64,000 bases of DNA from an uncultured delta proteobacterium (GTDB lineage Bacteria; Desulfobacterota; Desulfobacteria; Desulfobacterales; JAHEIW01): assembly GCA_963706575.1 (NCBI GenBank), contig CAVPNL010000011.1, positions 23,560 through 87,559 on the forward strand, read 5' to 3'. The notes below the pieces were generated by a model. It searched no databases, was not told the DNA's origin, and saw only the letters and a list, made by a program, of their open reading frames with translations. Of the stretch, positions 19,928 to 52,790 are shown in pieces. Each line of letters begins with the position of its first letter. Position 1 is the first letter of the stretch. A program made the position numbers and the translations under genes.

Positions 19928-20216
19928 GTAAGGTTCTGGGTTCAGCGTTCAAAGTTTCAGAGGTTAAAGGAAAAAGGCTTAAAGGCCGGTTTCATTAGTT
20001 TGATTAGTTCAATTAGTTCGATTGGTTGTTTCTGAAATGGCGAAGATTTAAAAAATCGAAAATCTTGAATGCTGGCAGGCGGAAACGCAATAACCAATAA
20101 AACCAATTAAACCAATCAAACCAATCAAACCAATTAGACAAATATAGCATCTGTTTTAACCTTGAGCCTCTAAACCCTTGAACTTCTGAACGCTGGCCAT
20201 TAGAACCTTGAACCCA
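19928..20216. repeat. Family A element, long copy containing a decayed ORF start
   Basis: GGTTC arms, ATTAGTT/AACCAAT arms and a central MAKI*KIENLECWQA remnant at 20037-20093. Confidence 0.8.
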
Positions 20217-20235
20217 CACCCCAAAGGTGGCAGTT

Positions 20236-21195
20236 ATGGAAAAAATGACAATTGCACTTCTTTCCGGCGGCGTCTCCTCGGAGCGTGAGGTTTCCCTAAA
20301 CAGCGGCAAACAGGTTTATGATGCCCTGGATAAGGGAAAATACAACATTGTCCGCTACGACCCCAAAACCGATCTGGGCCGTCTGGTTAAGGATGCGCCC
20401 GGCATTGATGCGGCCTTGATTATTCTTCATGGCCCCTATGGCGAAGATGGGACGGTTCAAGGGCTTCTTGAGCTGCTGAATATTCCCTATCAGGGTTCAG
20501 GCGTTCTCGGCAGCTCCCTTGCCATGAATAAGCTCGCTTCCAAGATCCTTTATGAAAAAGCCAATCTTCCCATTCCGCCTTATATCGCATTGCAAAAAGG
20601 CGATCCGCTGGAGCCGGCCGCCTGGGAAAAACAACTGGGCCTGCCGCTGGTAATCAAACCGAATGAGGCGGGTTCCAGCGTCGGCATGACCATCGTCAAA
20701 TCGCCGGACAGCATCCAGCAGGCCGTGGAAAAAGCATTTTCCCATGATTCTACCATTCTTCTCGAAGGTTATATTGAGGGCATCGAGCTGACCGGCGGGG
20801 TGATCGGAAACAGGGACTTGCAGGCATTGCCGCTTATTGAGATCATACCGGATGATGAACATGAGTTTTTCGATTACGAGGCTAAATATACTGCCGGCGT
20901 CACCCAGGAAATCTGTCCGGCGCGCATCGATGATGAAATGACTCAAAAAGCGCAGGCCTATGCGAAAACGGCGCACAGGGCTCTTTTCTGCAGCGGTTAC
21001 AGCCGCACCGATATGATATTAAAAGATGGTGAGATATACGTTCTGGAGACAAACACCATACCGGGTATGACCGCCACCAGCCTGTTGCCCCAGGCTGCCC
21101 AGGTTGCAGGATTGAGTTTCAGCCGCCTGCTGGATCAACTCATCGAACTTTGCATCGAGGCACATCGGGACAGCGGACAGCGGGTGACCCAATGA
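20236..21195 (+). CDS. ddl: D-alanine--D-alanine ligase
   Basis: GGVSSEREVSL.SG, LHGPYGEDG, KP...GSSVG, FFDYEAKY, ETNTIPGMT..SLLP. Confidence 0.95.
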   Translation: MEKMTIALLSGGVSSEREVSLNSGKQVYDALDKGKYNIVRYDPKTDLGRLVKDAPGIDAALIILHGPYGEDGTVQGLLELLNIPYQGSGVLGSSLAMNKLASKILYEKANLPIPPYIALQKGDPLEPAAWEKQLGLPLVIKPNEAGSSVGMTIVKSPDSIQQAVEKAFSHDSTILLEGYIEGIELTGGVIGNRDLQALPLIEIIPDDEHEFFDYEAKYTAGVTQEICPARIDDEMTQKAQAYAKTAHRALFCSGYSRTDMILKDGEIYVLETNTIPGMTATSLLPQAAQVAGLSFSRLLDQLIELCIEAHRDSGQRVTQ

Positions 21196-21941
21196 TTTTC
21201 AGAACGAATCGGGAGCTCAAGGCAAGCTATAATGAATTAACGGCCGGGGATGTTTTTATCGGCAACCTGTCATTGAAGTATCTCAAACAACCGATGCTCA
21301 TCGATATGCTGGAGCGTGGTATACGCTGCCTGCCGTCACCGCTTGCGCAAATTCTTAACAGTTCCAAAGTCGCCCAGGCATTCATTCTGTATGAATATAT
21401 GCTTCCGCACACGCAGGCGATATCTCGCCGGACAGATTTGATTGAAGCCATAAGCACCTTTGGCAAGAACGGTATCGGGCCTGTTGTGACCAAACAGGAT
21501 GGCATGCACTGCGGCCATGGAGTCCGCCGGTGGGAAACGATTGAAACCCTTTACAGTTTCATGGCCCTGGCTGAATCTTCCTACCCTTTTGTATTGCAGC
21601 CCTTTCGAGAGGGCTTTACAGATGTTCGCGTCATCATTGTGGGAGACTATGTCGAATCCTATACACGCAGCAATCTTTATAATTTCAGGGTAAACTTAAG
21701 TTTTGGCGGCACCGGGTCTGCATACAAACTGGATGAGAAAAAGGAGGCGTTTTGTCGATCTGCCATGCAACGGGGCAGATTCCCGTTTGCGCACCTGGAT
21801 TTAATGATTTTTGAAAACGGCGAATGTTGTCTGTCGGAAATCACGTTAAACGGTGGAATAAAAGGGGCCCGGATCGGCAGGCAGGAACTGGATGAGAAAA
21901 AAGAGGCATTCCTGGAAAAAATGGCCGGGAAAAATGCCTAA
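21192..21941 (+). CDS. RimK-like ATP-grasp protein
   Basis: ATGA overlap with ddl; LNSSKVAQ, PVVTK....CG.GV, VLQPF, DVRVIIVG, FR.NL..GG, AHLDL. Confidence 0.75.
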   Translation: MIFRTNRELKASYNELTAGDVFIGNLSLKYLKQPMLIDMLERGIRCLPSPLAQILNSSKVAQAFILYEYMLPHTQAISRRTDLIEAISTFGKNGIGPVVTKQDGMHCGHGVRRWETIETLYSFMALAESSYPFVLQPFREGFTDVRVIIVGDYVESYTRSNLYNFRVNLSFGGTGSAYKLDEKKEAFCRSAMQRGRFPFAHLDLMIFENGECCLSEITLNGGIKGARIGRQELDEKKEAFLEKMAGKNA

Positions 21942-22065
21942 AATGACTAAAATGAGCTAAAATGCCTAAAGTTAAGGTTTCGCTCGCGCTCCATCTTTAT
22001 TTAATATGATAGAATTCCTCAACTTTAGGCATTTTAGTTCATTTTACATTTTAGTTCATTTTAAA
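21931..22065. repeat. Family B inverted decamer element (AAATGCCTAA / TTAGGCATTT)
   Basis: Tandem AAAATG(C/A)CT units, core GGTTTCGCTCGCGCTCCATCTTT...AGAATTCCTCAA, then inverted units; overlaps the stop of the upstream gene. Confidence 0.85.
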
Positions 22066-22084
22066 ACAGCATAAGGAGGAGAAT

Positions 22085-22618
22085 TTGAGCGCAGAACAGA
22101 AAAAACAGAGTGATTCCGGTGGGTCAGCTAAAGTGGGCATTGTCATGGGAAGTGATTCTGATATGGGCGTCATGCAAAGTGCGGCGGATGTCTTAAAAGA
22201 TTTCGGTGTTGCTTTTGAAATAACGGTTGCATCCGCACACAGAAGCCCCCAGCGGGCGGCAGTGTGGGCGTCCACCGCCCCCGAGCGCGGCATCAAAGTT
22301 ATTATCGCCGGGGCGGGACATGCCGCTCATCTGGCCGGAGCCATGGCGGCTCATACCAGCCTTCCCATCATTGGCGTTCCCATCGACTCTTCCTGTTTAC
22401 AGGGAATGGACGCCCTGTTGGCGACCGTTCAGATGCCGCCCGGTATCCCGGTAGCCACCATGGCGATTGGAAAACCCGGTGCCAGAAACGCTGGAATCCT
22501 GGCCGTTCAAATCCTGGCCCTGGCAGATGCCGGTCTTGCCGAAAAACTGCAAGAATACAAAAAGGATATGGCGGCCAAGGTCGAACAAAAAGCGAAAAAG
22601 CTTGAAGGTTCAAGCTAG
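22085..22618 (+). CDS. purE: N5-carboxyaminoimidazole ribonucleotide mutase
   Basis: VGIVMGSDSD, SAHRSP, IIAGAG.AAHL.G, VQMPPGIPVAT; AGGAGG RBS with TTG start. Confidence 0.96.
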   Translation: MSAEQKKQSDSGGSAKVGIVMGSDSDMGVMQSAADVLKDFGVAFEITVASAHRSPQRAAVWASTAPERGIKVIIAGAGHAAHLAGAMAAHTSLPIIGVPIDSSCLQGMDALLATVQMPPGIPVATMAIGKPGARNAGILAVQILALADAGLAEKLQEYKKDMAAKVEQKAKKLEGSS

Positions 22619-22773
22619 GCTGGCAGGCTATAACGCTGGAAGGCTGGAAGGCTCTGAAGCGTGGGGATTTCCGGGTTTTAAGGCTTCATAGCTTTCCAGC
22701 CTCCTTGCTTCCCAGCCGATTCGTTTTTTTTGAATTTTTGAACCTTTGAACCCTGAACCTTTGAACCTTGAAC
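22605..22773. repeat. Composite AGGCTGG/CCAGCCT plus TGAACC repeat
   Basis: Inverted octamer units followed by TTTGAACC tandem units running into the tsaC start. Confidence 0.65.
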
Positions 22774-23409
22774 GTACAGATAAAAAAAATCGACCCCATC
22801 CATCCTGACCCCGAATTGATAAAAGAAGCGGCGGGGTTTATTAAACAGGGCGGGGTGATTGTATTTCCCACCCGATGTCTTTACGGGCTGGGCGCCGATG
22901 CGATGAATCCCATCGCCGTTGAACGCATCATCGAGATAAAACAACGCCCGGCAGAGAATCCCATCCTGGTTTTGATCCATTCTAAAAAACAACTGGAGAT
23001 GCTGGTTGAAAAAATACCGCCGGATGCAGATGCCATTATGGAAGCATTCTGGCCCGGCAGGGTGACCCTTGTCTTTGATGCCCGGGGTACATTGCCGGGT
23101 TTGCTGACTGCCCAAACCGGCAAAATCGGGGTGCGCCTTCCCGGACATCCGGTAGCCGCGGCAATGCTGGGACAGGTAAAAGGCCCCGTTACCGGAACCA
23201 GCGCCAATCTATCGGGCCGCCCGGGGTGTAACCGCTTGTCGGATATTGACCCCCAAATTACCGGCCAGGCGGATCTTGTCCTGGATGCCGGCACACTGCA
23301 AGGCGGAGTCGGCTCCACCGTTGTCGATGTCACTGCGGAGCCGCCGCGGATTCTAAGAGAAGGTCAGGTCACTGCCGACGACATATGGGGGGCATTAACT
23401 GAAATATAG
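22768..23409 (+). CDS. tsaC: L-threonylcarbamoyladenylate synthase (TsaC/YrdC/Sua5 family)
   Basis: VFPT..LYGLGADA, IK.RP..NP, FWPG..TLV, GVRLP.HP, TSANLSG, STVVD, ILREG. Confidence 0.9.
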   Translation: MNVQIKKIDPIHPDPELIKEAAGFIKQGGVIVFPTRCLYGLGADAMNPIAVERIIEIKQRPAENPILVLIHSKKQLEMLVEKIPPDADAIMEAFWPGRVTLVFDARGTLPGLLTAQTGKIGVRLPGHPVAAAMLGQVKGPVTGTSANLSGRPGCNRLSDIDPQITGQADLVLDAGTLQGGVGSTVVDVTAEPPRILREGQVTADDIWGALTEI

Positions 23410-23630
23410 AAGCCATATTAAAAATAGCAGATCACGTTCAAAAAACACATAACAACGAGTGACTAAAGTGAACTAAAGTGGGAAGTGCCTAAAGTTTCGG
23501 TGTCGCGATGCTCCATCTTTATAAAGATGACAGAATTCCATAACTTTAGGCACTTTAGATCACTTTAGGCATTTTAGGCACTTGATCCGTTCCATGCCCA
23601 TTAGATAACTTTTAACTTTAGTGCACTGTA
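23407..23630. repeat. Family B element
   Basis: AAGTGCCTAA/TTAGGCACTT units around a GGTGTCGCGATGCTCCATCTTT core; begins TAGAAGCCATATTAAAA at the tsaC stop. Confidence 0.8.
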
Positions 23631-23663
23631 ACTAATGCATTTTTGTTTTGGATTCTAATCTTG

Positions 23664-23692
23664 TTGACAACTTCCGGCAAGTTGCTTATAAA
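23664..23692 (+). promoter_or_regulatory. Sigma70 promoter of tRNA-Leu
   Basis: TTGACA-17 bp-TATAAA ending 11 bp before the tRNA. Confidence 0.75.
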
Positions 23693-23703
23693 AACTCCGA
23701 ATT

Positions 23704-23790
23704 GCCGGGGTGGTGAAACTGGTAGACGCACTGGACTCAAAATCCAGCGGGGCTTGCTCCATGCGGGTTCGATTCCCGCCCCCGGCACCA
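23704..23790 (+). tRNA. tRNA-Leu (CAA)
   Basis: GCCGGGG/CCCCGGC acceptor stem, CTGGA-CTCAAAA-TCCAG anticodon arm, long variable arm, GGTTCGATTCC, CCA; 87 nt. Confidence 0.96.
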
Positions 23791-23799
23791 ATAAACAAC

Positions 23800-23830
23800 A
23801 AAGGGTTGGCCATCTTAGCCAACCCTTTTT
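23800..23830 (+). terminator. Intrinsic terminator after tRNA-Leu
   Basis: AAAGGGTTGGC-CATCTTA-GCCAACCCTTT followed by a T tract. Confidence 0.8.
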
Positions 23831-24004
23831 ATGTTCAATTGGTTATATTGGTTCAATTGGTTTTATTCGTTAATTCTGAACCAATTAGACCAATTAGACC
23901 AATCGAACCAATAAAACAAGATGATACCTTTCATCTGTCGCCTGAAGATATGTTTGCCCGATTAAACCAAAAACTGCTTCAGCGCGACGAGCGTTTCTTT
24001 TTCC

Positions 24005-24364
24005 TTACCAGGAGCCTTCAACATTAGCGCTGTCAGCAAACGATACTTTGCCTTCACTGCAAGCAATTACCGCATCCCTGACTGTTCCGGTCACATCATT
24101 GGCCACTTTTACTCCTGCGGCATTGAGGGTTTTAAACGCATTTGGCCCACAATAACCTGTCAGCAAAACTTTCGCACCCCGATCACTTATCATGACGGCG
24201 GCCTGAATGCCGGCCCCCTTAAACGCATTTACATTCTCTGAATTATCCAGCACCTCAAACCCATGATCGAGCGTATCAACAATAAGGATGTAAGCCGCCC
24301 GACCAAATCTGGGATCCATTGGTGAATCTAAATCTTTGCCCTTGGATGTTATTGCTATTTTCAA
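24005..24364 (-). CDS. NifB/NifX family protein (Orange-protein-like)
   Basis: TTG start after GAGGAGG; KIAITS.G, DPRFGRA, GAGIQAA, TG.CGPNAF. Confidence 0.88.
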   Translation of the reverse strand: MKIAITSKGKDLDSPMDPRFGRAAYILIVDTLDHGFEVLDNSENVNAFKGAGIQAAVMISDRGAKVLLTGYCGPNAFKTLNAAGVKVANDVTGTVRDAVIACSEGKVSFADSANVEGSW

Positions 24365-24393
24365 TTGCAGTTCCTCCTCAATTCGGGATGCAC

Positions 24394-24774
24394 TCAACCG
24401 CCCCCGCCGCCACACACTTGGTCATCGGTGATTTCAGGTAGTTTGCCTGCTATTAAGTCTTCCACCACTGGCTTTATCTCAGCTCGTAATGAATCATGAT
24501 ACACCTCAATTCCAGCCTGTTTGAATCCCATCAGTGGCCGCATGCCGATTCCTCCGACCACAAGGGCATTTACATTGTGGCTCGCAAGCAGATTGACCGG
24601 TACCATGCAGCCGCCCTGAACATGTTCCTGATTTTGAACGGTCGAAACTTTTTTTATCTCTCCATTTTCAACATCGATAAAGGTAAACACATCGCAGTGA
24701 CCAAAATGTCCGGACCTGGTTGCGTCCAAACCACCGTTCCCATTTGATGGAACTGCTATTCTTCCGTTTCTCAT
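24394..24774 (-). CDS. NifB/NifX family protein
   Basis: RIAVPS, SGHFGHC, H..GGC..PV, GGIG.RP, C-terminal CGGG. Confidence 0.88.
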   Translation of the reverse strand: MRNGRIAVPSNGNGGLDATRSGHFGHCDVFTFIDVENGEIKKVSTVQNQEHVQGGCMVPVNLLASHNVNALVVGGIGMRPLMGFKQAGIEVYHDSLRAEIKPVVEDLIAGKLPEITDDQVCGGGGG

Positions 24775-24907
24775 AATGATAAGTTCTCCTTGTTTGTTTT
24801 AATTTATTCTATCCAACCTTCGTGATCTTCGTTTTCTTCGTGGTGAGATAACTATCGAAGGTATTCAACTGGAGATTTCCAGATAACCACATTAATTTAT
24901 TTTAAAT

Positions 24908-25312
24908 TTAGCGCTCCGCTGCTTGTTCAGCCAGATTTAGAATCGTTTTCAGTTGTCTGAGCAATTTTTCAGCCTGTTCTTGCCCCGGTCTGACCGGTAA
25001 TTGCATCAGTATACCCAATCCTTCGCTGGCCTCATGGAAATCGGCAGGCAAAAGCGAGGTGACCGCAGCACAGTTGACCATGGGCTTAATTGAGATAACA
25101 TTTTCGATAAATTCGAGGCCGGTCATATCGCTGAGATTTTCATCCGTGACGACAAGATCAAAGCGTCCTTCTGCGATCTTGACGATTGCATTGCTGCCGG
25201 ATTCCGCCCATGCTGTCCGAACCTGATTTTCTTCCAGGCCTGCTTTAAAGGCGGACATAGAGGCTTTATCCTGGCTTACCAGTAAAACCCTAATTATTTT
25301 TTGTTTACCCAT
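24908..25312 (-). CDS. Atypical single-domain response regulator
   Basis: Receiver-like VLLV, DLVVTD..L.DMTGLEFI; lacks the canonical acidic pair and KP. Confidence 0.7.
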   Translation of the reverse strand: MGKQKIIRVLLVSQDKASMSAFKAGLEENQVRTAWAESGSNAIVKIAEGRFDLVVTDENLSDMTGLEFIENVISIKPMVNCAAVTSLLPADFHEASEGLGILMQLPVRPGQEQAEKLLRQLKTILNLAEQAAER

Positions 25313-27079: not shown

Positions 27080-27583
27080 CTAACTGCGCCGTATACCGCC
27101 ACCGCGCCCCATGCCCCGGCCCGAACCTTGGCGCACTCCGCGTCCACCACCCTGGCCCATCCCGCGCCCGCCACCCGATGGCTTTCCTGCTCCGATACGG
27201 TCACGGCGTCCGCCGCCGCCCATGCCGAAATGACGGCCAACGGTGGATTGGGCTATGAGATTAAGTGTATCGTTTTTATACCTTTCCACGACTTCTCTGA
27301 TGGTGCCTTGCTGTTCCGTAAATATTTCAATTCCGGCGGCCAAAAGTGTTTGAACGGCATTCGGCCCGACATCACCGGTGATCACTGCAGCCACACTTTT
27401 ATCTGCCAGAAATTGGGCTGCCTGGATGCCGGCTCCGCTGCTTTGAGCGGCGCTTTGGTTATCAAAAGCCTCATACCGCATGTCCGCCGGATCAATGACC
27501 AAAAACCAGGCGCAGCGACCAAAGCGCGGATCGATGGGAGAATCCAAAGTTTTACCTGACGAACTAATAGCGATTTTCATCAC
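27080..27583 (-). CDS. NifB/NifX family protein with Gly/Arg-rich tail
   Basis: KIAISS.G, DPRFGRC, GAGIQAAQ, then GRGMG repeats; GGAGG RBS. Confidence 0.88.
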   Translation of the reverse strand: MMKIAISSSGKTLDSPIDPRFGRCAWFLVIDPADMRYEAFDNQSAAQSSGAGIQAAQFLADKSVAAVITGDVGPNAVQTLLAAGIEIFTEQQGTIREVVERYKNDTLNLIAQSTVGRHFGMGGGGRRDRIGAGKPSGGGRGMGQGGGRGVRQGSGRGMGRGGGIRRS

Positions 27584-27633
27584 ACAACCTCCCTGTCATT
27601 ATTGGGTGCCGAGCAAAAACACCACATTTATAA

Positions 27634-27681
27634 TGAGTATATGCTCAAAACAAATGTAATCAATGACAATTCAGTTGTCAA
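27634..27681 (-). promoter_or_regulatory. Sigma70 promoter with downstream palindromic operator
   Basis: Minus strand TTGACA-17 bp-TACATT, then the TGAGTATATGCTCA palindrome at 27634-27647. Confidence 0.6.
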
Positions 27682-27792
27682 GGTATTTTTGTCCAAAACA
27701 CTGAAATTGATTTACGATTTATTAAATTTGCTGGATTGGCGCAACGGATTTACATTGCGGTAGACTTCACCGTTTATCAAGCACGTTTAGGT

Positions 27793-29100
27793 CTAAGCAC
27801 CATAAACGGCCACCTCTTTGAGGTCATCCTGCAGATATTCGCGTTCGTTTTCCCCCAGAATACCCATTGCCAGACATATGATGGTCCACAGATGCACCAC
27901 CCCGTAGCCGCCGCCGTAGTGCTCACTGAGTTCGTGAATTTGGGCATGGCAGTTGTGACAGCCGGCAATGCAATAGTCGGCTTTGGTGTTTTGAATTTGA
28001 TTGTCTTTTAAGCGGCCAAATTCCAGACGCGCTTCTTTGTAGCCGGACTGCAGAAAACCGCCGCCACCGCCGCAGCAATAATTGTTGGAGCGGTTGGGGT
28101 GCATCTCGATAAAGTTTTCTTCGCCCACCACGGTTTTAACCACATAGCGCAGATCTTCGGCGATGGGGTCACCGAAAGTCTTTCGTACGATCTGGCAGGG
28201 ATCCTGGACCGTAAACTTGATTTTTAAGTCCTTGTTCCAATCGGAATTGACCTTCAGTTTGCCTTCGCGGATCCATTTGGCGTAGTATTCATAGATGTTT
28301 TTAACCTCGAATTTGTGGTCGATGTTGAATTTTTTCAGTCCTGCCAGGACTGAGAAGGTGACGTGCCCTCACTCGGTATTGAGATATATCTTGCAGCCCA
28401 GGTCATCGGCCTGTTTGGCCGTTGTGCGCACAATGTGTTCCCAGGCCTCAGTGTCGGCCAGAAACATGCAATAGTTTTCCCCTCCCCAGCCTTTGGACCC
28501 ATAGGTCCAGTCGGCGCCCACCAGGTGAAGGATTTTCCACAGCGGCACCATTTCATCGGGCTCGGTCACCGGCTCTCTGGAATTCTGATTTAAAAAGAAA
28601 TACGCCCCCTGTTTGTCAATGGGTGCCTGCATGTCTTTAAAATCCGGCTGGGCTTCCTGGTATTCTTCTAAAACATCTTCCACCACGAAGGTGAAATCTT
28701 CCGGCGATGCCCCCATGGCACTGCAGCTGTCATTTCTCAGGGCCATATCGCAGGATCCTAAAATGCCCTTGGGGCGTTCTTCCCGCGGCCGGGTGCTACG
28801 AACGTTGAACACCAGTTGCGGGATATCAATTTTCATCGGACACACATAGATACAGCGCTGGCACTGGGTACACATCCAGGCCCAATCGGAGGCAAGCAGT
28901 TCATCGTCCATTCCCAGGGCCGCCATGCGCAAAAATTTTCTGGGATCCATGCCTTCAAGGCCCGTGGCCGGACAGCCCGAAGAACAGGCCCCGCACGTCA
29001 AACACAGATTTAAATTGCCGCCTTCGGGCAGCAGCTCCATGACTTTGTCCATAAAACGGCTTTTCTTCTTGCCACCTAATTTGATAACTTCTTCTGGCAT
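27793..29100 (-). CDS. Fe-S oxidoreductase (HdrD/GlpC-like, 4Fe-4S plus CCG domains), probable selenoprotein, 435 aa
   Basis: CLTCGACSSGCP and CTQCQRC...CP. In-frame TGA at 28369-28371 in NTE-U-GH. The frame stays open through QDPC, NYCCGGGGG and CHNC to the stop at 27793. Confidence 0.88.
28335..28353 (-). promoter_or_regulatory. Candidate bacterial SECIS hairpin
   Basis: TCAGTCCT-GGC-AGGACTGA perfect stem with a G-containing loop, starting 15 nt after the UGA. Confidence 0.7.
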
Positions 29101-33149: not shown

Positions 33150-33400
33150 TAAAGGTTCAGGGTTCAGAGGTTCAGAAAAAGGCCTAAAGGCCAGTTCGAT
33201 TGGTTTGATTAGTTCAATTAGTTTGACAGGTTATTTCGGAAATGCCGACGATAAAATGATTTGAAAATCTTGAATGCGTGTAGGCGTAAAATCACCAACA
33301 AATGACCAACCAATTATAACCATTAACCCGAATCCAAAACAGTTTCCTCAAACAAACCAATTGACAACGGATGGCGTTGCCTGACTTTTAACCTCCTGAT
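33150..33400. repeat. Family A element, long copy with decayed ORF start
   Basis: Aligns with 19950-20130; remnant MPTIK*FENLECV*A at 33242-33286. Confidence 0.75.
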
Positions 33401-35215: not shown

Positions 35216-35372
35216 GTTCAAGGGTTCAGCGTTTGTCTATTCGGTTTAAGGCGGGTAATTTTTTTGTTAAATTTGTTTTATTGGTTTCATTGGTTTAATT
35301 AGTTGAATTAGTGAATTATCCGAACCAATCGAACAAATCAGACCAATTGAACTAATAAAACCGGCCTTTAGG
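35214..35372. repeat. Family A element between convergent genes
   Basis: GGTTCA units directly after the stop, inverted ATTGGTT/AACCAAT arms. Confidence 0.75.
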
Positions 35373-35374
35373 CC

Positions 35375-37474
35375 TTACAGCTCAAAGACCACCGGTTCCC
35401 GTAATATCATCTCAATTGCCCGGTCGGCCGTTACGGCCGCATCGGGAAATACCTGCCGGAGCGCGCGGATATGCCGCAGATTGTCTGCGGTTCTCAGGAT
35501 CAGCATCACCAGGTCCCCTTCCTCCATCTCGGCCTGGATTTGTACCTTCTCCCACTGTTCTCCGTTGGCCCAGGCATAAATTGCCGCCACCGGTCTTAAG
35601 TGAAAAGGGCGTGCTTCAAATCCGCGATCCTGCATCTGCCAGGCAAAAGGCCTTAACCCTTTGACGACCCTGTAGAATGCGTCCAAAAGCGGTCGGGGGA
35701 GGCGCTTTTTGTGAATTTTGGTATCGGATTCGCGTTCATTGACAAAGGCCGCGATGATCGCTGCCAGAAGGCCCGGCTCGGATTTCGGCAGGATGCCCAG
35801 CTGAAAGCCCTCGGCAATTAAAAGCGGCTGGTCCACCCGCAATTGACTGGTCCATTTTCCCTTCTCGGTCAACTCTCCGCTGCCGGTGACGTAAGCGCTG
35901 TCCTTAAGAAAATCCAGATGCTGCAAAAAATCACCCCAAAGAATGCGGCGGCGGTCTTTGCGGGATTTTTTTTGGGGGGTCTTTCGGAGTAAATAGGATG
36001 CAAACGAGCGACCGAGCAAATCTTTAACCTGATCGGGGCTATGCGACAGCAGCAGATTCAGTACCATTGAAAAATTAATTTTGATTTGACTGGCAACGTC
36101 CGAAGCCCTTGTCTGAAACAATTTCGCCATCCAGCGAACATCCATGAATTTGTTGGGCAGCAGCAGGGCGAAACCGATATTATCCATGCCTCTGCGGCCG
36201 GCCCGGCCGGTCATCTGATGAAACTCGGTGGCATCCAGCGGCAGAAACTGGGTTCCGTTAAAACGGTCTGAATTTAAAAAGACCACCGTACGGGCCGGGA
36301 AATTCACACCGGCCGCAACCGTGGATGTGGCAAATACCGCATCCAGCAAACCCTCGCTCATCAAGCGCTCGAGCATCAGTTTCCAGGCCGGCAACTGGCC
36401 GGCATGGTGCGAACCCAGTGCCAGGTTCTCAAGAAACCAGCGTTGACGATGATGAATCACATGCGGACTTTGATGAGCTGACGTTTCAATCCGTTCTTTG
36501 AGAACGGCATTTCGGCCGGGGTCCGCTAACCATTTTCTGCGGCACTGCTCCAGGGCGCGGTCGCAATCCGCCCGGGATTTCAGGAAAAAAATGGCCGGAA
36601 GAAGGTCATATTTCTTCAATACTTTCAGAACATCGTCAAAAGGCAGCAGATAATCCGGCATCCGGCGGTATCGCGAGCCTTTGGTTTTTAAAAAATCGGC
36701 GACTTTTTTATAAATTTTTTCTTTGCCTGCGGTTTTTGCAGGCTCGGTTAACGGCAGCAGGGTACCGGAAGGATGTAAAAAAAGCGGGGCCAGCGGCACC
36801 GGTCTCTTGTACTCCCTGATAACCGTGCAGCGGGATGAGCGAATCGAAGAAAGCCAGCCGGCGATTTGGTCGGCATTGCCGATGGTTGCAGAGAGCAATA
36901 AAAGCGGGATGCGCTGTGGCAGATAAATCATGATTTCTTCCCAGACCACCCCGCGGTCCGGATCTCCCAAAAAATGCGCCTCGTCCAGAACCACAAAATC
37001 TGCCGCCAGTAATTCACCGCGGTGCATGGCATCATAGAGCTGGTTTCGCAAAATTTCAGTGGTTCCCACAATGATCGAAGCGTCCGTATTTTCTTTACGG
37101 TCCCCGGTTAATATACCAACATGCTGCCGGCCGAAGATGGCGGAAAATTCCGCATATTTGGCATTGCTCAGCGCTTTCAAAGGGCAGGCATACCAGGATC
37201 TTCCGCCGCCGGCATGAATGCGGGCGATGGCTTTTTCGGCGATCCAGGTTTTTCCGGAACCGGTCGGCGCGGTCACCAGACAATCGCTGCGCTCTAACGC
37301 GGAGATGGCATCGAGCTGGAAGGCATCCGGTGTGAAAGACGGGTTTTCGGGCACGCCGATTTCAGCAAAAATTTTTCGGAGTCCTGCATCGGCGCCCGGT
37401 TTCAGATGGGGGTGTTTGGGTTTCTTGCGGGGGTAACGCCGTGGCCGCAAGAAACGTTTGCTGCGTTTTGCCAT
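35375..37474 (-). CDS. Ski2/HelY-like DEAD/DEAH-box helicase
   Basis: APTGSGKT, PLKALSN, TTEILRN, DEAH, LSAT, HHAG, QMTGRAGRRG. Confidence 0.93.
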   Translation of the reverse strand: MAKRSKRFLRPRRYPRKKPKHPHLKPGADAGLRKIFAEIGVPENPSFTPDAFQLDAISALERSDCLVTAPTGSGKTWIAEKAIARIHAGGGRSWYACPLKALSNAKYAEFSAIFGRQHVGILTGDRKENTDASIIVGTTEILRNQLYDAMHRGELLAADFVVLDEAHFLGDPDRGVVWEEIMIYLPQRIPLLLLSATIGNADQIAGWLSSIRSSRCTVIREYKRPVPLAPLFLHPSGTLLPLTEPAKTAGKEKIYKKVADFLKTKGSRYRRMPDYLLPFDDVLKVLKKYDLLPAIFFLKSRADCDRALEQCRRKWLADPGRNAVLKERIETSAHQSPHVIHHRQRWFLENLALGSHHAGQLPAWKLMLERLMSEGLLDAVFATSTVAAGVNFPARTVVFLNSDRFNGTQFLPLDATEFHQMTGRAGRRGMDNIGFALLLPNKFMDVRWMAKLFQTRASDVASQIKINFSMVLNLLLSHSPDQVKDLLGRSFASYLLRKTPQKKSRKDRRRILWGDFLQHLDFLKDSAYVTGSGELTEKGKWTSQLRVDQPLLIAEGFQLGILPKSEPGLLAAIIAAFVNERESDTKIHKKRLPRPLLDAFYRVVKGLRPFAWQMQDRGFEARPFHLRPVAAIYAWANGEQWEKVQIQAEMEEGDLVMLILRTADNLRHIRALRQVFPDAAVTADRAIEMILREPVVFEL

Positions 37475-42275: not shown

Positions 42276-42497
42276 GTTCAAGGTTCAAAGGTTCAGGGTT
42301 CAAAGGTTCAAGGTTCAGGGGTTCAAAGGTTCAAAGTTTTGTTAGATTAGTTTCATTTGTTTTATTGGTTGAATTGGTTGGCTTAAACCGAACCAATTGA
42401 ACGAATTAAACCAATCAAACCAATTAAACTCCAAATGATTTACTTTAAATCGAATATACCAACGTTAACCTTTGAACCTCTGAACGCTGAACCCAAG
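42276..42497. repeat. Family A element inside the pil operon
   Basis: Many GGTTCA units, inverted nonamer arms nearly identical to 990-1083, and closing TGAACC units. Confidence 0.85.
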
Positions 42498-44236: not shown

Positions 44237-44470
44237 AAAGCTGCCTCAAAACAGTAGCTCACGCTTAAGAACAAGAAACCAACAAGTGCCTAAAATGCCT
44301 AAAATGACTAAATTGCCTAAAGTTATGGTGTCGCTATGCTCCATCTTTTTTAATAAAATGGAAAGAATTCCTCAATTTTAGGCATTTTAGCTCATTTTAG
44401 TTCATTTTAGACATTTTCATAACTTTAGTCACTTTAGATCACTTCCAACTTTAGCGCACTTTTTGATAAC
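44237..44470. repeat. Family B element inside the pil operon
   Basis: AAATGCCTAA units, GGTGTCGCTATGCTCCATCTTT core, TTTTAGGCAT units. Confidence 0.85.
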
Positions 44471-44472
44471 GC

Positions 44473-46347: not shown

Positions 46348-46672
46348 GAACCTATCTCAAAAAAGCATTTAACACTCGAGGTACAGTTTTAAACCTATAA
46401 AAAGTGCTTACAACAAATGAGCTAAAATTAAAAATGATCTAAAATGCCTAAAATTATGGTTTCGCTCGCGCAGCGCAGGCGCTTGCGCCGCGTGGCGCTC
46501 CATCTTTTATAATAAATATGATCGTTCGACCCAGAGGCTCTCGACGGGTAGAATTCCTCAATTTTAGGCATTTTAGCTCATTTTAGTCATTTTAGGCACT
46601 TCTAATTTTAGAGCACCTTGGGAGCTTTTTTTCTGCCGTTGAATATGAACTACTAATTTTGCGATAGGTTCT
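46348..46672. mobile_element. MITE-like family B element with terminal inverted repeats and nested REP-like inserts
   Basis: AGAACCTATCTCAAAA ... TTTTGCGATAGGTTCT (15 of 16); decamer arrays inside; left ~110 bp matches 53837-53950. Confidence 0.75.
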
Positions 46673-46811: not shown

Positions 46812-48341
46812 TCAACTGCCCGGTTCAGCCGGCTCAAGAATATGCGGTGTAATAAAGATCAGCAGATCCTCCAGTCGATCGTCGCTGCCTTTTCTTTTAA
46901 ATAAATAACCCAGCCCGGGGATATCCTCGAGATACGGAACGCCGGTGTCGGAACGGCTGCTGGTTTCTTTGTTCAGGCCACCGATGACAATCGTCTGGCC
47001 ATTCAGTTGAATGACGTTGGTTTCGGCGTTTTTGGTAATAATTGTGGGATTGCCGAGCACGGTTCTGGAAAAGTCGGCTTCATCTTTATGCACATTAACA
47101 TACATTTTTAGGGTTTTATCGTCGATCACATGCGGCGTGACTGTCAACTTCAGCACCGCCTTTTTAAATTCGACGTTGACCTCTCCGTCTTCCACGGTCT
47201 GGAAGGGTATTTCCTCACCGCTTTCAATATTGGCGGTCTGATTGTCCAGGGTAGTAATCGAGGGACTGGACAGAATATTGAGCTTGCCCTTGTCCTGCAG
47301 TGCGGATAGCTGGACAGACAAAAGGGCGTCGCCAATGTTCTGGTAAATGAGTCCCAGCGAAAAGGGGTCAAAGCCGCTCAACGCCTGAGCCGGCAAATTG
47401 ACCGCATTTCCTGAGCTTGGATTGACTGCTGTGCCGATATCTCCGCCAAGGGCGTTGTTGTCTGCCCCGGTGCCAAAGCCGGTACCGGTCCCCAGGGCAC
47501 CGGTACTCACCAGTCCGCCCCACTGGACGCCCAGTTCCCGGGCCACGTCTTTGTTGGCTTCAACGATAAAGGCTTCAATCAGCACTTGCGGCGTCGGTTT
47601 GTCCAGCTGGTCAATGACGGCGATGATGTTTTTGAGGTCGTTGCGAATTGCCTGTATAATCAATGAGTTGGTATGCTCGTCAACCAGAATGGAACCAATG
47701 GGCTTGTCGTCCTTGTCAAGGGTCAGAAATTTTTCCAGGTTATTTTTTAACTTGTCGGCGGCGGCATATTTAACGGGCACAATACGGGTTAATGGCTGTT
47801 CGCTGAGTTTCATTTCTCGCTGGCGCGTCTGGCGTTTGAGATCCTCATCCATGTCATCGGCGGTCATGATGCGGATGATTTCACCCTCCCAGGCGTAACT
47901 GAGGCCCTGGGTACGCAGGATTCCGAGAAATACTTGATCCCAGGGGGCCTGAGTAATATTGATGTTGATCTTTCCGGAGACCTTTTCGCTGACAATGATG
48001 TTTTGATCCGAAGCCCGGGCCAGCGCCCTCAGCACCACCGAAACGCTGATGTCCGTCATTTTAAGGCTGATCTTGCGTGTCGGCAGCGGTTTTTCTGCAA
48101 TTTCATCAAGTTTAACGTCTTGAGGAGTCGCCTTGGGCTTGATAATTTGCGGTTGTTCCGTTCTGGGTTTCGGTTTTGCCGGTGAATACCCCTTGGAGGT
48201 TTCCGCTTTTGTTTTCCATTCGTCAAAAAACGGATCCTGTTTCTCCACTTTGGGGCTGGCACAGCCACCGATCAGTAAAACAGAAATTAAAACCGCCACA
48301 ATGCTTCGCACTATCCTGTTGGTTTGTTCAAGATTATCCAT
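46812..48341 (-). CDS. pilQ: Type IV pilus secretin (lipoprotein)
   Basis: Lipobox LIGGC, PWDQ, VDEHTNSLII, QVLIEA.IVEA, LSSP.I.TLDN.TA.I..G.EIP, IP.LG.LFK. Confidence 0.92.
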   Translation of the reverse strand: MDNLEQTNRIVRSIVAVLISVLLIGGCASPKVEKQDPFFDEWKTKAETSKGYSPAKPKPRTEQPQIIKPKATPQDVKLDEIAEKPLPTRKISLKMTDISVSVVLRALARASDQNIIVSEKVSGKININITQAPWDQVFLGILRTQGLSYAWEGEIIRIMTADDMDEDLKRQTRQREMKLSEQPLTRIVPVKYAAADKLKNNLEKFLTLDKDDKPIGSILVDEHTNSLIIQAIRNDLKNIIAVIDQLDKPTPQVLIEAFIVEANKDVARELGVQWGGLVSTGALGTGTGFGTGADNNALGGDIGTAVNPSSGNAVNLPAQALSGFDPFSLGLIYQNIGDALLSVQLSALQDKGKLNILSSPSITTLDNQTANIESGEEIPFQTVEDGEVNVEFKKAVLKLTVTPHVIDDKTLKMYVNVHKDEADFSRTVLGNPTIITKNAETNVIQLNGQTIVIGGLNKETSSRSDTGVPYLEDIPGLGYLFKRKGSDDRLEDLLIFITPHILEPAEPGS

Positions 48342-48359
48342 AAATTGTCACCCTGATTG

Positions 48360-48887
48360 TTATTCTTCCAGCTGAAAGATAAACTTCTTTTTGCTCCTGT
48401 CTGTTGATACAATGACAACCTGCCTCGGAGTGATGCTGCGTACCTTAAATCCTCCCTGCTGAAGTTCATCTCCGGCGGCATATTCAAAGCCGTCAATAAT
48501 AGCGAATTTCTTATCGCCCATCTGCATGAAGCCGGTGTAGGAAACATTCAATTGCGGGCCCGTTGTCTGTATGACCTGCTGCTTTTGCTGATTGATTTCA
48601 TCTTCGGGCCTGTCGGTTAATTCGACCGTTGTCAGCGGGTCCTGCTTCCAGGCGGATTCAGCGCGGGAAATGATATATTTATCTTCTTTGGACAGCCCGG
48701 CCCTGGAAGCTTCCGCAACCTTGGCGATAAATGCGTTCAAATTTTCCAGCTGCTTTGTAGCGCTTACGGCGGCGGTGGACGTTATGCTGCTCTTACCCTT
48801 GCCCTTGCCCTCGAAAAACAGGGCGTAAATACCATAGACTACCGTAAGCAGCATGAGACCGACAATTATTTTCTCTCGGTTTGACAT
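48360..48887 (-). CDS. PilP/GspB-like pilus alignment protein
   Basis: SNREK plus TM helix, DP motif, C-terminal beta domain (AIIDG.EY..GD); lies between pilO and pilQ. Confidence 0.65.
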   Translation of the reverse strand: MSNREKIIVGLMLLTVVYGIYALFFEGKGKGKSSITSTAAVSATKQLENLNAFIAKVAEASRAGLSKEDKYIISRAESAWKQDPLTTVELTDRPEDEINQQKQQVIQTTGPQLNVSYTGFMQMGDKKFAIIDGFEYAAGDELQQGGFKVRSITPRQVVIVSTDRSKKKFIFQLEE

Positions 48888-49049
48888 AAATCAAGTAAAG
48901 TGTTTGGTGTTTAGTATTTTGTGTTTCGGGTTAATCGTTCTGCCCGCCATCAGCCGAATTATTTGCTCAGTCCCCAGTCCTCAGCACTCAGTCCTTCTTT
49001 TTTGTAGTTTAAAATTCAACAATCCGCAATCCGCATTCTGAAATCGAAA

Positions 49050-49586
49050 TTACTCCTGCCCCAGCCAGAGCTTTATCTGGAGTTCTCTGGCCGTTTTCAC
49101 GGGGCGTATGTTGATTTCTTCGATGTGTTCCAAAGGTGCAATCGATCCCAGATCCACTAAAAAATCGCGAAATTTATAAAAATTTCCGCTCAGCCGGAGT
49201 CTCATCATCAGATATCCGGAGTCTTCCATCATTGAGCTGACATCGGTTTTGATCTCTTCGAGTTTTAAGTTATGACGCATTGCTAAATCCTGAAATACTT
49301 GTGAAATGCTATTCATATCGCCGTGGGTCAATTTGGTTTTTTCAGGTGACGGCAACGCTGAAGGCGACTCCGTTTTTGCCCGTTTCAGCAGGCTGTGAAA
49401 CACCGGTGTCAGGATTCGCTGTTCTTCAATGCGGACGTTTAATTTATCGATTTCCAGGTCCAATTCGGCCGAGTTTTTTTGAGATGGAAGAATGATCAGG
49501 AGCAAAAAGGCCAGAACTCCCACCACACATATCACCAATACCAATAAGCTTTGACCCAGCGGATTTTTGGACATCTTGTCTGCCAT
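49050..49586 (-). CDS. pilO: PilO-like protein
   Basis: TM helix, coiled coil, ferredoxin-like tail (L.G.F..F.DFL..L); operon position. Confidence 0.7.
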   Translation of the reverse strand: MADKMSKNPLGQSLLVLVICVVGVLAFLLLIILPSQKNSAELDLEIDKLNVRIEEQRILTPVFHSLLKRAKTESPSALPSPEKTKLTHGDMNSISQVFQDLAMRHNLKLEEIKTDVSSMMEDSGYLMMRLRLSGNFYKFRDFLVDLGSIAPLEHIEEINIRPVKTARELQIKLWLGQE

Positions 49587-49611
49587 GCTGTTTTTTCGTT
49601 CCCTTATCCGT

Positions 49612-51543
49612 TCAAATCAGTTTTAGTTGCGCCTTAAACCGCAGCACTTCGCTATTTCCTGAAAATTCAAATGATTTACTGCTGATATTCGGTTGATCAA
49701 ATAACTGCGAGTTCTTTAATTCCAGCAGGTACCCCGCCAGAGCCGATTCGAGCATCAAGCGATCCCCCTGAACAATACCCTCCAGAATCAGAATCCGAGA
49801 GGGCGCATCCGCCGGTTTCTTTTTACCTTTTTTGCCCTTTTTGCCCTTTTTGTCATTTTCCGGCTGTTCTTTTGTCGGTAGCGGTCCCAGCCGGGTTGTT
49901 ATGTCCAGCAATCGCACATTGGGAGGCGTCAGATCAACGACTTCACTGATCACTGCAAGATTCAAATATTTATTACCGATCGCCTGGTCGGATCTGTTTT
50001 TTTGCCTGATTTGTTCGACCAGCTTAAGGATTAAATTTTTATCCACCCGCAGGTTATATTGTTCCAGGTGTTGAACCAGTTGCTGCTTTTTAGCCTCTTT
50101 GTCCCGGATGATTTTTTCCTGCCAGAATGATAGTCCCACGCAGCCGGCCATCAGCAGCAAAAAGGTTGCAAACACCATGCGGTTGATGCGTTGATTGCGG
50201 ATTGTTTTGCGTTTGTCTTTGTAGGTGAACAGGAAGTTGGGTGTTCGTGAGTTATCCGCCAGGGCCATGCCCATTGCCGGGGCAAAGGAGCTTTGCTCGG
50301 ACATTGAATCCGGAACCGGCACGACCGGCAGAAAATTGGAACTTGCCTGAAACGGGTTCAATACCTCGGTGGGCATTCCGAGCTCTTCTGCGATATAGTC
50401 CAAAATACGTTGATGGGGCGTCACCCCGCTGGAGATGAAAATTTTGCCGATTCTGGCATTTTCATAGTTCAAGGCATAATGCCGGATGGTGCGTTCCACC
50501 TGCCGTACCAGCCGCTCCAGAGCCGGCTGAATCATTTGAAATACTCTGTTCTCGTTAATACCCAGCTTTTTTCCCTCGGCATCCACAGGAATTGGCTCGT
50601 GGATATAGCCGAAGAAATAATTCTGGGCAACTTCCAGATCGAGCTTGAGTTTTTGCTTTACGGCCCTGATCCTGCCGACATTGTCATTGGGAGATTTGAC
50701 CAGCGAAAGACCCTTGCTGCTGCTCTCGATTTCTTTCTTCAATGCCTCCATCATGGTTCGCACACCGGCCTTAATGCCCCGGGACAGTGTCAAATTGCCC
50801 TCGGAAAAAATATCGATCCGCGACCAGTCGCGCCCGACATAAAGGCTGGCGACAAACTGATCGGATGCTTCCACCCGGCGGGTGCGCAGCAGCGTTTGAA
50901 AAGCGAATGGAACGATGGATATGCCGGATAAAGGAAATCCGGCCTTTGCAAACATTTCTTTTAAAGCGACGACTTCATCCCGGGGTACGGTATACGCGAG
51001 CACGTCCATTTTAACGGATTGCTCTTCCTGCACCTCGCCCAGGATTTCAAAGTCAAATATTTTTTCATCTCCATCAAATGCAGCTTCTCTCTGGTAGGTC
51101 CAGTAAATGGCGTTGGGGATTTGCCGGGCGGCGACTTTCGGAATCCGGAAATGGCGGGTTTCTACCCGGGCCGATGAGATGGTGCACCAGATATCTGCGT
51201 TTCTATTGGGTCCGCAGAATTCCGCCAGGGTCGGTCTCAAAAATTGATGAAACTCCGGATTTTCTCTGGGAATTTCCAGATCAAAAGGAACCCGGGCATA
51301 TTCCAGCATTTCATGATTTCGATCCGAGATCCGCCGTACTTTTACCAGTTTCAAATCATCGTAGCCGATATCGACACCAACGGCGATATTTTTCTTGAAG
51401 GAGACCGATGTACGAACGAGCGATTTCAGGCCACCCGAGCGCTTTTGTGACAGTTGGTCGGAGTCATCCAACTTAATTTGGTCTTCGGTGCGAATTAGTT
51501 CGAGAAGTCTTTCCGTTGAAGAAATCTCATCCTGTTTGGCCAA
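49612..51543 (-). CDS. PilM-PilN fusion protein
   Basis: Actin-like PilM (VGVDIG, IFISSG, AMGMAL) followed by PNFL, a TM helix and PilN-like TPPNVRL/LEG regions in one ORF. Confidence 0.8.
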   Translation of the reverse strand: MAKQDEISSTERLLELIRTEDQIKLDDSDQLSQKRSGGLKSLVRTSVSFKKNIAVGVDIGYDDLKLVKVRRISDRNHEMLEYARVPFDLEIPRENPEFHQFLRPTLAEFCGPNRNADIWCTISSARVETRHFRIPKVAARQIPNAIYWTYQREAAFDGDEKIFDFEILGEVQEEQSVKMDVLAYTVPRDEVVALKEMFAKAGFPLSGISIVPFAFQTLLRTRRVEASDQFVASLYVGRDWSRIDIFSEGNLTLSRGIKAGVRTMMEALKKEIESSSKGLSLVKSPNDNVGRIRAVKQKLKLDLEVAQNYFFGYIHEPIPVDAEGKKLGINENRVFQMIQPALERLVRQVERTIRHYALNYENARIGKIFISSGVTPHQRILDYIAEELGMPTEVLNPFQASSNFLPVVPVPDSMSEQSSFAPAMGMALADNSRTPNFLFTYKDKRKTIRNQRINRMVFATFLLLMAGCVGLSFWQEKIIRDKEAKKQQLVQHLEQYNLRVDKNLILKLVEQIRQKNRSDQAIGNKYLNLAVISEVVDLTPPNVRLLDITTRLGPLPTKEQPENDKKGKKGKKGKKKPADAPSRILILEGIVQGDRLMLESALAGYLLELKNSQLFDQPNISSKSFEFSGNSEVLRFKAQLKLI

Positions 51544-51727
51544 AATCGCTCTCCCCTGAAAAAGTGTACAATAGAAGGGTACAATAAAACGGCACGCTTA
51601 ATCCCGGTTTAAAGCAGGGTGAAGAAATTAGCCATTCCTTGCAGCCGCGCCTGTCTTTGGCCTTTACGGTAAAGATAAACGCGACTACCGGGCGGATTCG
51701 TCGTGCCTATAAAACCTTTTGCATAAT

Positions 51728-51758
51728 TTAATTGCCATCAAATTTTGATGGCAATTAA
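51728..51758. promoter_or_regulatory. Perfect 15 bp inverted repeat upstream of the pil operon
   Basis: TTAATTGCCATCAAA-T-TTTGATGGCAATTAA. Confidence 0.5.
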
Positions 51759-51965
51759 TAACTACATTAATTAATTCATAAAATTACGATTTTGTCAAGA
51801 AATAACCATGTACCAAAATCCACCGTTTGCGGCGATCTGGACCGTGATGGCCGTGCGATGCATTCCGCACGAATACATGCGAGATTCCGATTATGCGGTG
51901 GAAATAATTTTTCATAAACCTATCAGAAAAATACGTGAATTCAAACAATTTTTGTAGGTTAAAAT

Positions 51966-52139
51966 TTAATCAGACGGGATTTTATAGCGTGGAGCCTTAC
52001 GGCGGTCTTCGCTTTCACGTCGTTCGTCGCCGCTGCGCCTTTCAGGGACATGCAGCGTGTATGAATAAGTCCGACGATCCCCCCCGGAGCGTCTTCCGCC
52101 GTTGTCGGTAGATATGCCGTTTTGTTTTTTTTCGATCAT
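51966..52139 (-). CDS. Small Arg-rich protein with repeated (D/E)RR motifs (57 aa)
   Basis: GGRRSGGDRR, PERRSGDERRESEDRR; upstream sigma54-like promoter; the start could be 52166. Confidence 0.7.
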   Translation of the reverse strand: MIEKKQNGISTDNGGRRSGGDRRTYSYTLHVPERRSGDERRESEDRRKAPRYKIPSD

Positions 52140-52330
52140 AGTGCTATCCGCGCAAGATTTCATCATAATACATTAGGTGTCACGGCTGCCAGGAAAATCA
52201 TGTTCTTAAGTCCGTTATTGAGTTCGATTGGTTAAATACGTTTGAGTCGTATGATTCAGAAATAACCAGTCAAACTAATTGGCTAATCAAACCAATGAAA
52301 CCAGCATTCAGGCCTTCGATGACAGATTAA

Positions 52331-52346
52331 AGCAATTTTTATTCCA
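52331..52346 (-). promoter_or_regulatory. Candidate sigma54 promoter for the small Arg-rich gene
   Basis: Minus strand TGGAATAAAAATTGCT = GG-N10-GC. Confidence 0.55.
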
Positions 52347-52529
52347 TAAGTGCTGATTTTGACGGGAATAATTTATCGGCGAGGGGAGCAGTTTAAATTA
52401 GCTGTAAGTTCATAAGGATAGGGTGCCAATTTTTAAAGCATTGATTTACGTCGAGCGCTATCGGGAAAGGTTTATCCCGGCGGAATGGGTAGTGGTTTAC
52501 CCAAGGGTGTGAAAAAAGGTTCATCGTTA

Positions 52530-52790
52530 CTCGATTTCGGAATTCGGATTGCGGATTGTGGATTTTTAAATACCAAAAAAAAAAGAGCCAAGAGTTCAAG
52601 AAAAAGCCCTAAAGGTCGGCTTCATTAATTTGATTAGTTGCATTCGTTCATTTAGTTGGTTGTTAGATGGCGGTAACGAAGAGATTTGAGGATCTCAAAT
52701 GCAAGAGGTTGTTAAGAGACCTAACAATTATGACAAATTCAGCATAATGTTTTTAAATCCGCATTCTGCAATCCGCAATCCGAAATCGAT
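52530..52790. repeat. Composite element: inverted GCGGATT/AATCCGC heptamer arms enclosing a family A arm and a gene remnant
   Basis: TTCGGATTGCGGATTGTGGATT ... AATCCGCATTCTGCAATCCGCAATCCGAAAT; remnant MAVTKRFEDLKC at 52667. Confidence 0.75.

Follow-up and report, generated by a model that had tools for sequence, protein, structure and literature searches.

Among the closest described systems to the elements reported here is the intervening sequence (IVS) of 23S rRNA, which in Coxiella burnetii, according to the available passages of PMC4990558, carries an S23p gene and stem heptamers and is cut out by RNase III. In the available part of PMC4692102, GGGAATC heptamers of Xanthomonas are described as intergenic convergent pairs of short tandem arrays without insertion-sequence association. 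The family PF05635 is stated to resemble Avd of diversity-generating retroelements in the portion consulted of PMC10053308, and 18 four-helix-bundle family genes were reported inside cas loci in that of PMC3936711. Here, a window of 64,000 nucleotides (nt) (C11:23560-87559, contig CAVPNL010000011.1) from the assembly of an uncultured delta proteobacterium (GCA_963706575.1, hereafter G000; 5.67 Mb, 91.8% complete, 6.4% contaminated) was analysed, and three of its intergenic repeat elements were found to carry stubs of a PF05635/TIGR02436 four-helix-bundle gene inside inverted arrays of a short word. We know of no function for this family. The literature search, with most subscription journals outside it, gave no report of intergenic four-helix cassettes with tandem arms, only the rRNA-IVS form and the unexplained heptamer pairs.

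The present units resemble the 23S rRNA IVS, as far as the passages of PMC4990558 describe it, in the gene family, the apparent looping out of the gene by complementary ends, the tandem heptamers in the 5′ stem and the reductive evolution of the gene, whereas they differ in lying between protein genes and not inside rRNA, in occurring in about 20 word types, in nesting and in leaving hundreds of gene-less hairpins. As to complementary termini like those of the IVS, the element at 20037 folded as one long stem (z -6.5) and that at 33242 at the level of shuffles (z -0.3), the energy comparison was positive for 2 of 8 intact cassettes, and word orientation agreed in 12 of 20. The intergenic convergent short tandem arrays are common to the Xanthomonas pairs, for which no origin or cargo gene is given in the available part of PMC4692102, whereas here stubs link the pairs to a parent gene. 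The cargo protein is in the same fold family as Avd, but no reverse transcriptase or template repeat was linked to the present cassettes. MITEs, the miniature transposable elements with inverted repeats, and the REPINs, which are based on repetitive extragenic palindromes (REPs), are short, gene-less, inverted-ended units in tens of copies, and the gene-less dispersed copies with inverted ends found here (40 of a family termed A and 11 of a linker family) share this trait; the ends here, in contrast, are fuzzy tandem arrays, no target duplication was seen at one site compared by eye, no matching transposase or REP-associated tyrosine transposase (RAYT) was found among the families searched, and the parent gene is not known as a transposase. 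Drosophila foldback elements also have inverted arms of tandem sub-repeats around a variable loop, but they are eukaryotic, far longer and unrelated in sequence.

The first stub-bearing element (19930..20215, unstranded) is a nested hairpin between a DJC28-domain gene and ddl, with outer GGTTCA arms at about 19930-19968 and 20158-20215, inner ATTGGTT-type arms at 19994-20027 and 20092-20143 and a linker at 19975; its stub (MAKI*KIENLECWQA.., 20037..20090, plus strand) is 54 nt long from ATG to the right arm and translates as MAKI*KIENLECWQAETQ*. The second element (33153..33365, unstranded) is a decayed nested one with a -35/-10-like promoter (by eye) on one side and the beginning of a hybrid histidine kinase gene on the other, and its stub MPTIK*FENLECV*A* (33242..33295, plus strand) is also present at the orthologous site in the related genome G005 and in a metagenome locus, L054. 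The third (52533..52787, unstranded) has outer GATTGCG arms (52533-52564 and 52756-52787), which enclose the linker (52605), an ATTGGTT-type arm on the left and the stub MAVTKRFEDLKC.. (52667..52721, plus strand), followed by a short piece matching the tail of intact genes (V-K-R-T-N codons). All three micro-ORFs translate as the first-pass annotation of the window had stated. Two more members of the same element family carry a TTTCTGAA junction: an inverted copy (52215..52315, minus strand) with a 20-nt centre and no recognisable ORF, and a copy with a doubled left arm (58895..59110, plus strand), in which the junction stands at 59030 and the centre measures 21 nt. The junction motif that had been claimed near 59029 and 52256 was thus present (59030, and 52267 on the minus strand), and the status of these two as further-shortened stubs is only suggestive (shuffle p 0.03 and 0.13). 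The motif GGTTRTTTCKGAA occurs five times in G000, four of them in the window (20024, 33229, 59030 and 52267 on the minus strand), and is lacking from the 52667 element. The linker is common to all five window elements and has 11 copies in G000, seven of them in the window, as counted with a query that was taken from the window and favours window matches; three further matches were an unrelated repeat.

A DNA motif encoding F-E-[DN]-L-[EK]-C was found twice in G000, both times in the window. When the opening 45 nt of the parent-branch genes (described below) served as profile, 33242 (33.3 bits) and 20037 (32.5 bits) ranked first and second of 11.3 million positions, the maximum of the reversed-genome control being 13.6 bits, and 52667 ranked third with 13.3 bits, inside the control range; this profile is partly circular, its member genes having been retrieved by a pattern derived from the stubs. 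With a non-circular profile of 38 Pfam-selected N-termini, 20037 was the top non-intact match at 20.1 bits, with a control reaching 25.0, and 33242 was not above 14 bits. The remnants at 33242 and 20037 thus rise above background by the branch profile, while 52667, and the non-circular profile as a whole, do not. A PF05635 search of the window at E up to 1 gave no match, stubs included (about 15 codons each); tblastn of the eight intact G000 genes against G000 gave none to the stubs among the matches listed, and nhmmer with whole parent genes gave the three stubs at E 0.37, 2.4 and 8.6.

The significance of the stubs comes from their context, namely the less-decayed ortholog of the 33242 site on the metagenome contig L054, which reads MATIKRFENLECW* in the same arms, and the arm word common to the intact parent branch. 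The decisive support is comparative: the L054 reading together with the same stub in G005. The four-helix-bundle origin that the first-pass annotation had proposed was borne out by the L054 ortholog, the parent-branch profile scores and the arm word of the intact TIGR02436 relatives, on which the family assignment is based, and the stubs at 20037, 33242 and 52667 are confirmed as real remnants of a PF05635/TIGR02436 four-helix-bundle gene.

The parent branch comprises genes of the type MATIKRFEDLECWQEAR. G000 has eight PF05635 matches over the cut-off (seven distinct proteins), none of them in the window and none of the branch of the stubs. Among 122 PF05635 matches of 24 relatives in the family, the 88 that were fetched likewise contained none of this branch; when 25 genomes of the family were searched by pattern, no parent-branch gene appeared, the single match belonging to a neighbouring branch. 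Scanning the genome collection by pattern yielded 13 intact genes with the start M-A-x-I-K-R-F-E-D-x-E-C-W-Q, and nine matches, seven of them new, came from searching 401 genomes of the order with the whole protein. All four intact parent-branch proteins tested passed TIGR02436 (about 100 bits, cut-off 24), and PDB entry 2GSC is related to them (E 1.8e-13). Intact genes with ATTGGTT arms had been expected elsewhere, and such arms (at least two ATTNGTT words upstream and at least two AACNAAT words downstream) were indeed found around 12 of 20 distinct parent-branch loci, as compared with 5 of 95 other family genes, all five sharing a single heptamer type whose core is similar; the arm word was part of neither the pattern nor the whole-protein query. 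Of the remaining eight parent loci, four belong to side branches that have other words, a contig end truncates one, two are weak and one shows right-hand words on both sides. Writing L and R for the left and right arms, three parent loci have the layout L-R-gene-R and one R-gene-R, as integration or excision via direct repeats would give; at L045, L049, L205 and L044 the intact gene is preceded by a complete small hairpin or a right-hand arm.

The stubs at 20037 and 33242 are of the same length, and those of G005, L054 and 52667 align with them within one base; the FENLE change is common to four stubs, 52667 keeping FEDL. The L054 stub, aligned to the intact gene L044, keeps about 43 nt of the gene start and picks up again about 319 nt further on, within the V-K-R-T-N tail, which is also that of 52667; the exact break is approximate, as L044 is a relative and not the true parent, and an automated call misplaced the 52667 junction. 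The description of the remnants as pure 5′ ends was not supported, since 52667 and L054, the least decayed, also seem to keep about 12 nt of the gene tail. Nor was the graded deletion series proposed for the three stubs supported: they have one junction and length in common, which suggests one deletion followed by copying.

For other subfamilies of the gene a true deletion series exists. A second G000 stub, on contig C3, is 47 nt long, lies in GCCTAAAAT arms and is one gene downstream of an intact copy (G000:C3:328898-330428, loci L006 and L232), so that an intact cassette and the stub flank one gene; at the reciprocal loci in G005 (C368, L222 and L233) the site that is intact in G000 holds a 30-nt stub, with 352 nt lost at the 4-nt microhomology CCTT, and the site of the C3 stub holds a full-length copy with an early stop. 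The gene between these sites is identical at 857 of 926 positions. Further junctions were found in G003 and G006, three lineages of one such subfamily show three different junctions, and seven more broken copies, of the GGTTCAG subfamily, were found in G004, G031, G032, G033 and G034. The 11 broken copies keep starts of 30-160 nt with microhomologies of 0-4 nt, mostly measured against non-parents; the ATG is kept in 9 of 11, which was not counted as a 5′ bias, the tails of the genes being variable and less easily detected. Deletions that arise independently leave different junctions, so that a single junction in the window stubs argues for copying. From the sister genomes, the order of states would be intact, nonsense, internal deletion, stub and arms only, while gene-less units continue to disperse. 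The stub surveys are lower bounds: a scan of 218 element interiors, in which only the window stubs clearly exceeded shuffles, missed the C3 stub, whose arms were unlisted by the detector, and a whole-gene query of the AAGGCGC subfamily missed a stub in G036 already visible in the site comparison. Among the pieces listed of the contigs assembled from four read runs, none spans a stub element.

Full, stub and empty states were found at orthologous sites by comparison of sister genomes, as the first-pass annotation had proposed to look for. Hairpins stand at the 20037 site in all 12 readable genus relatives, several with GGTTCA outer arms and with differing interiors, and neither gene nor stub was found in any of the 12; in a genome of another family the site is a 19-nt spacer. 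At the 33242 site, the stub is present in one of 13 readable relatives; two of them lack any element, and the other ten carry different ones. In a tree of the adjacent gene, G000, G009, G005, G002 and L054 form one 100/100 clade, and the two empty genomes nest among carriers. The stub is common to G000, G005 and L054, and G009 has instead an inverted element with the 21-nt centre of the 59029 element. From the tree placement, G009 probably replaced the stub by this element, while the two empty sites probably arose by clean loss. No target duplication was visible by eye at the one empty/full site compared (33242). No ATTGGTT element was found at the 59029 site in nine relatives; in G036 (L098) this site holds a stub from a different subfamily (MGNFQELKVWQRGKDLAVY), framed by CACGGCG/AAGGCGC-type arms. 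At the 52667 site, no stub was found in the four relatives compared (of 10).

In the intact cassette, a PF05635/TIGR02436 gene is enclosed by a subfamily-specific word of 6-10 bases, repeated in tandem 4-5 times, and by the reverse complement of this array, the arms having a median of 4.3 units (10-90%: 3.1-5.0). The ORF was recovered in 108 of 109 family loci, and the N-terminal type predicts the arm word (by eye), about 20 word types being known: GGTTCAG for the MKIERFEDIEAWQLAR subfamily, GTGTTTG for MAFLRFEDL, GGTGTCA for MDVEDLEVY, GCCTAAAAT for MSRKKFAKD and GATTGCG for MKDRTKKF, while MTDKINSYKDL has a right arm at most. The correspondence is one of linkage, not of recognition, because kin inherit words by descent. 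Since the words are subfamily-specific, the window elements with GGTTCA outside and ATTGGTT inside, and the 52667 element with GATTGCG outside, are nested leftovers of different cassette types; the GGTTCA and ATTGGTT arms, once taken as one unit, had to be separated, as GGTTCAG belongs to the MKIERFEDIEAWQLAR subfamily and 52667 lies inside GATTGCG arms. The MTDKINSYKDL type (G000:C4:622288, L003; homologs L122, L123, L126 and L129) seems fixed behind one upstream gene genus-wide and is possibly domesticated. Three of four GxxExxY genes lie in inverted word arms of their own, of CGCAAAG and CACGAA types (G000:C6:266171, C19:8588 and C6:909829; L209-L211), and thus form a second cargo family of the same design; gene-less pairs of GxxExxY-type words occur in the window at 3172-3245, 11290-11370 and 54052-54074.

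Gene-less hairpins are dispersed over G000. There are 220 inverted pairs of any word, 187 of them with a gap below 200 nt, and at least 62 left-right ATTGGTT pairs, none with cargo and none in reverse order. Between the arms only six small genes were found, five four-helix and one GxxExxY, the transposase families of the genome having been searched in part. Of the gene-less pairs located, 183 of 186 are intergenic and 141 lie between co-directional genes. Family A, a stereotyped gene-less ATTGGTT hairpin, has its 40 copies on 14 contigs (control 0), one pair being a probable assembly duplicate; between co-directional genes 14 copies are oriented with and 15 against transcription. Among 36 copies, contig C16 being left out, those on the same contig resembled each other more closely (p 0.0002 by permutation); for copies within 100 kb p was 0.035, and for those within 30 kb it was 0.12. 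Two family A copies stand in the window, at 42276..42493 (plus strand, within GGTTCA arms) and 941..1083 (plus strand), together with a gene-less member of the linker family at 35266..35375 (minus strand) and a shortened one at 1478..1560 (plus strand). Gene-less GCCTAAAAT-type hairpins at 21931-22063, 23458-23583, 44287-44444 and 46440-46600 share a conserved non-repeat centre (TCGCT..GCTCCATCTTT..AGAATTCC) and are a second stereotyped dispersed family. Duplicated segments in G000 (C6:747k and C20; C16 and C17) differ in arm-unit numbers; they probably reflect a strain mixture in the bin, and are a sign of arm slippage.

We weigh at about even chances that a gutted four-helix cassette, its arms being inverted arrays of a 9-base word, was copied to nearby intergenic sites, most likely by host recombination between arms and not by a transposase. 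The process would start from the intact cassette between subfamily-word arms seen in the relatives. The hairpin loop would then be deleted in place, sometimes at short microhomology, joining the gene start to the tail or the right arm and later leaving arms only; sister genomes show this for two other subfamilies, and for the window stubs it is highly probable. Hairpin-stimulated slippage would yield such loop deletion between inverted arms. Stub-bearing and gene-less hairpins would next have been copied elsewhere, in either orientation and with a local bias, which is probable. The copying itself, with roughly balanced chances, could be gene conversion or crossover between similar arms already present at many gene junctions. 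Host arm recombination is favoured because it needs no enzyme of the element, allows both orientations and favours neighbours; it would also account for swapped interiors in persistent outer arms, for nesting and for the L-R-gene-R forms, the expected trace of a gene-plus-arm circle integrating into an empty hairpin.

Several points weigh against this reading. Arm recombination leaves the first colonisation of a naive site unexplained, no copying event was caught and no enzyme was pinpointed; two genomes are without an element at the 33242 site, a state that arm-to-arm conversion can neither create nor fill. The window-stub junction was read against the relative L044, without microhomology, the true parent not having been found, and microhomologies at junctions other than the CCTT site are 0-3 nt. 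The same-contig signal is possibly inflated by the contamination of 6.4% and by duplicated contigs, and is not significant below 30 kb; the linker query from the window biases towards window matches (7 of 11), flank pairing energy separated only two of eight intact ATTGGTT cassettes from wrong-word partners and is a poor test, and the non-circular profile alone leaves the stubs non-significant.

In the main rival, the pentameric protein would act word-specifically on arms that have 4-5 units: the four-helix protein, alone or with a helper enzyme, would recognise its own arm word and mobilise full, stub and gene-less units in trans, as with MITEs and REPINs. We regard it as a tentative possibility. 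Each subfamily retains its own word across genomes, family A is stereotyped and dispersed in a MITE-like manner, and the median arm of 4.3 units may be set beside the solved relative 2GSC, a pentamer in the passages of PMC4990558; co-inheritance alone, however, gives word-gene linkage, G000 has its many ATTGGTT pairs yet no gene of that branch, no catalytic role was reported for the family in the literature passages available, and no target duplication was visible at the site compared by eye. Six Y1_Tnp matches and one reverse transcriptase in G000 have flanks of their own: none of the six is flanked by ATTGGTT or GGTTCA arrays within 170 nt on either side, and two are flanked by GC-rich palindromes. 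The small Y1 transposases at G000:C15:145707 and C19:5817 (L213 and L216) have such palindromes, RAYT/REP-like, and similar ones stand at about 13590-13640 and 61195-61230 of the window. In the fullest form of the rival, equally tentative, four-helix cassettes would be a transposase-free mobile element class in which the pentamer of each subfamily reads its own word and drives copying of any unit with those arms, and full cassettes would collapse to stubs and gene-less hairpins that keep spreading locally, nesting and swapping.

It is unlikely, although compatible with copying by arm recombination, that the host keeps the hairpins as stems for mRNA processing or stabilisation, with gene and stub as passengers. 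Most genus members retain some hairpin at the same sites despite the change of word, and the intergenic position of nearly all gene-less pairs, mostly between co-directional genes, would fit, but purifying selection alone predicts that position, the 33242 copy folds no better than shuffles and two genomes have lost the element there. Distinctly unlikely is the alternative that the three sites were once intact and lost their loops independently at a deletion hot spot, the stubs not being copied. In-place deletion of neighbouring intact copies occurs in another subfamily, and 52667 differs at its junction and keeps FEDL; against this, independent deletions elsewhere left a different junction every time, the window stubs have length, junction and linker in common, two of them carry the TTTCTGAA spacer, absent from all intact genes displayed, and the 20037 site is without gene or stub in all readable genus orthologs. 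That RNase III cuts the hairpin from transcripts and reverse transcription returns a copy to DNA, the four-helix protein being Avd-like, is very unlikely: the long stem of the 20037 element, the RNase III excision and stem heptamers of the Coxiella IVS with this gene family (passages of PMC4990558) and the likeness of PF05635 to Avd (part of PMC10053308) speak for it, but family A is unbiased with respect to transcription (14 against 15), and the sole reverse transcriptase found looks group II intron-type in our reading, is armless and is separated by about 150 kb or more from every intact four-helix gene of the contig it lies on. Chance resemblance of the micro-ORFs in AT-rich repeat DNA is hardly credible and largely refuted, for although the non-circular scores fall in the control range and 52667 stays inside the control even with the branch profile, the L054 ortholog reads as a stub and precisely the genes of this branch bear the same arm word, absent from every query.

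Ordinary genes make up the rest of the window, among them ddl, purE, those of type IV pili and histidine kinases, and many of its spacers hold inverted pairs of 7-10-base tandem arrays. A family scan of its 49 ORFs gave no transposase or recombinase match, in agreement with the earlier claim that the window holds no transposase; an Rfam scan gave two tRNAs only, and no RNA family on the repeat elements. At 3313-4858 a repeat hairpin separates neighbouring genes for an M4 thermolysin-type protease and an emfourin inhibitor. At 27583-28369 a CCG-domain frame (27793-28143) without a normal start follows an Fe-S gene across TGA codons, and either selenocysteine or a broken gene is possible. At 14829-17264 an acidic protein of 811 aa with an N-terminal zinc ribbon is encoded, with a 234-nt internal duplication.

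Bacterial intergenic regions commonly contain short tandem arrays in inverted pairs, whose origin is not given in the available part of PMC4692102; the stubs are direct fossils joining such intergenic arrays to the four-helix-bundle family. At least 187 gene junctions of G000 carry such hairpins, which means that whatever moves them reshapes untranslated regions genome-wide. The correspondence of word and subfamily makes protein-word recognition directly testable, and a pentamer-driven mobile class, if true, would account for the heptamer-type inverted repeats that lie between bacterial genes and have long lacked an explanation.

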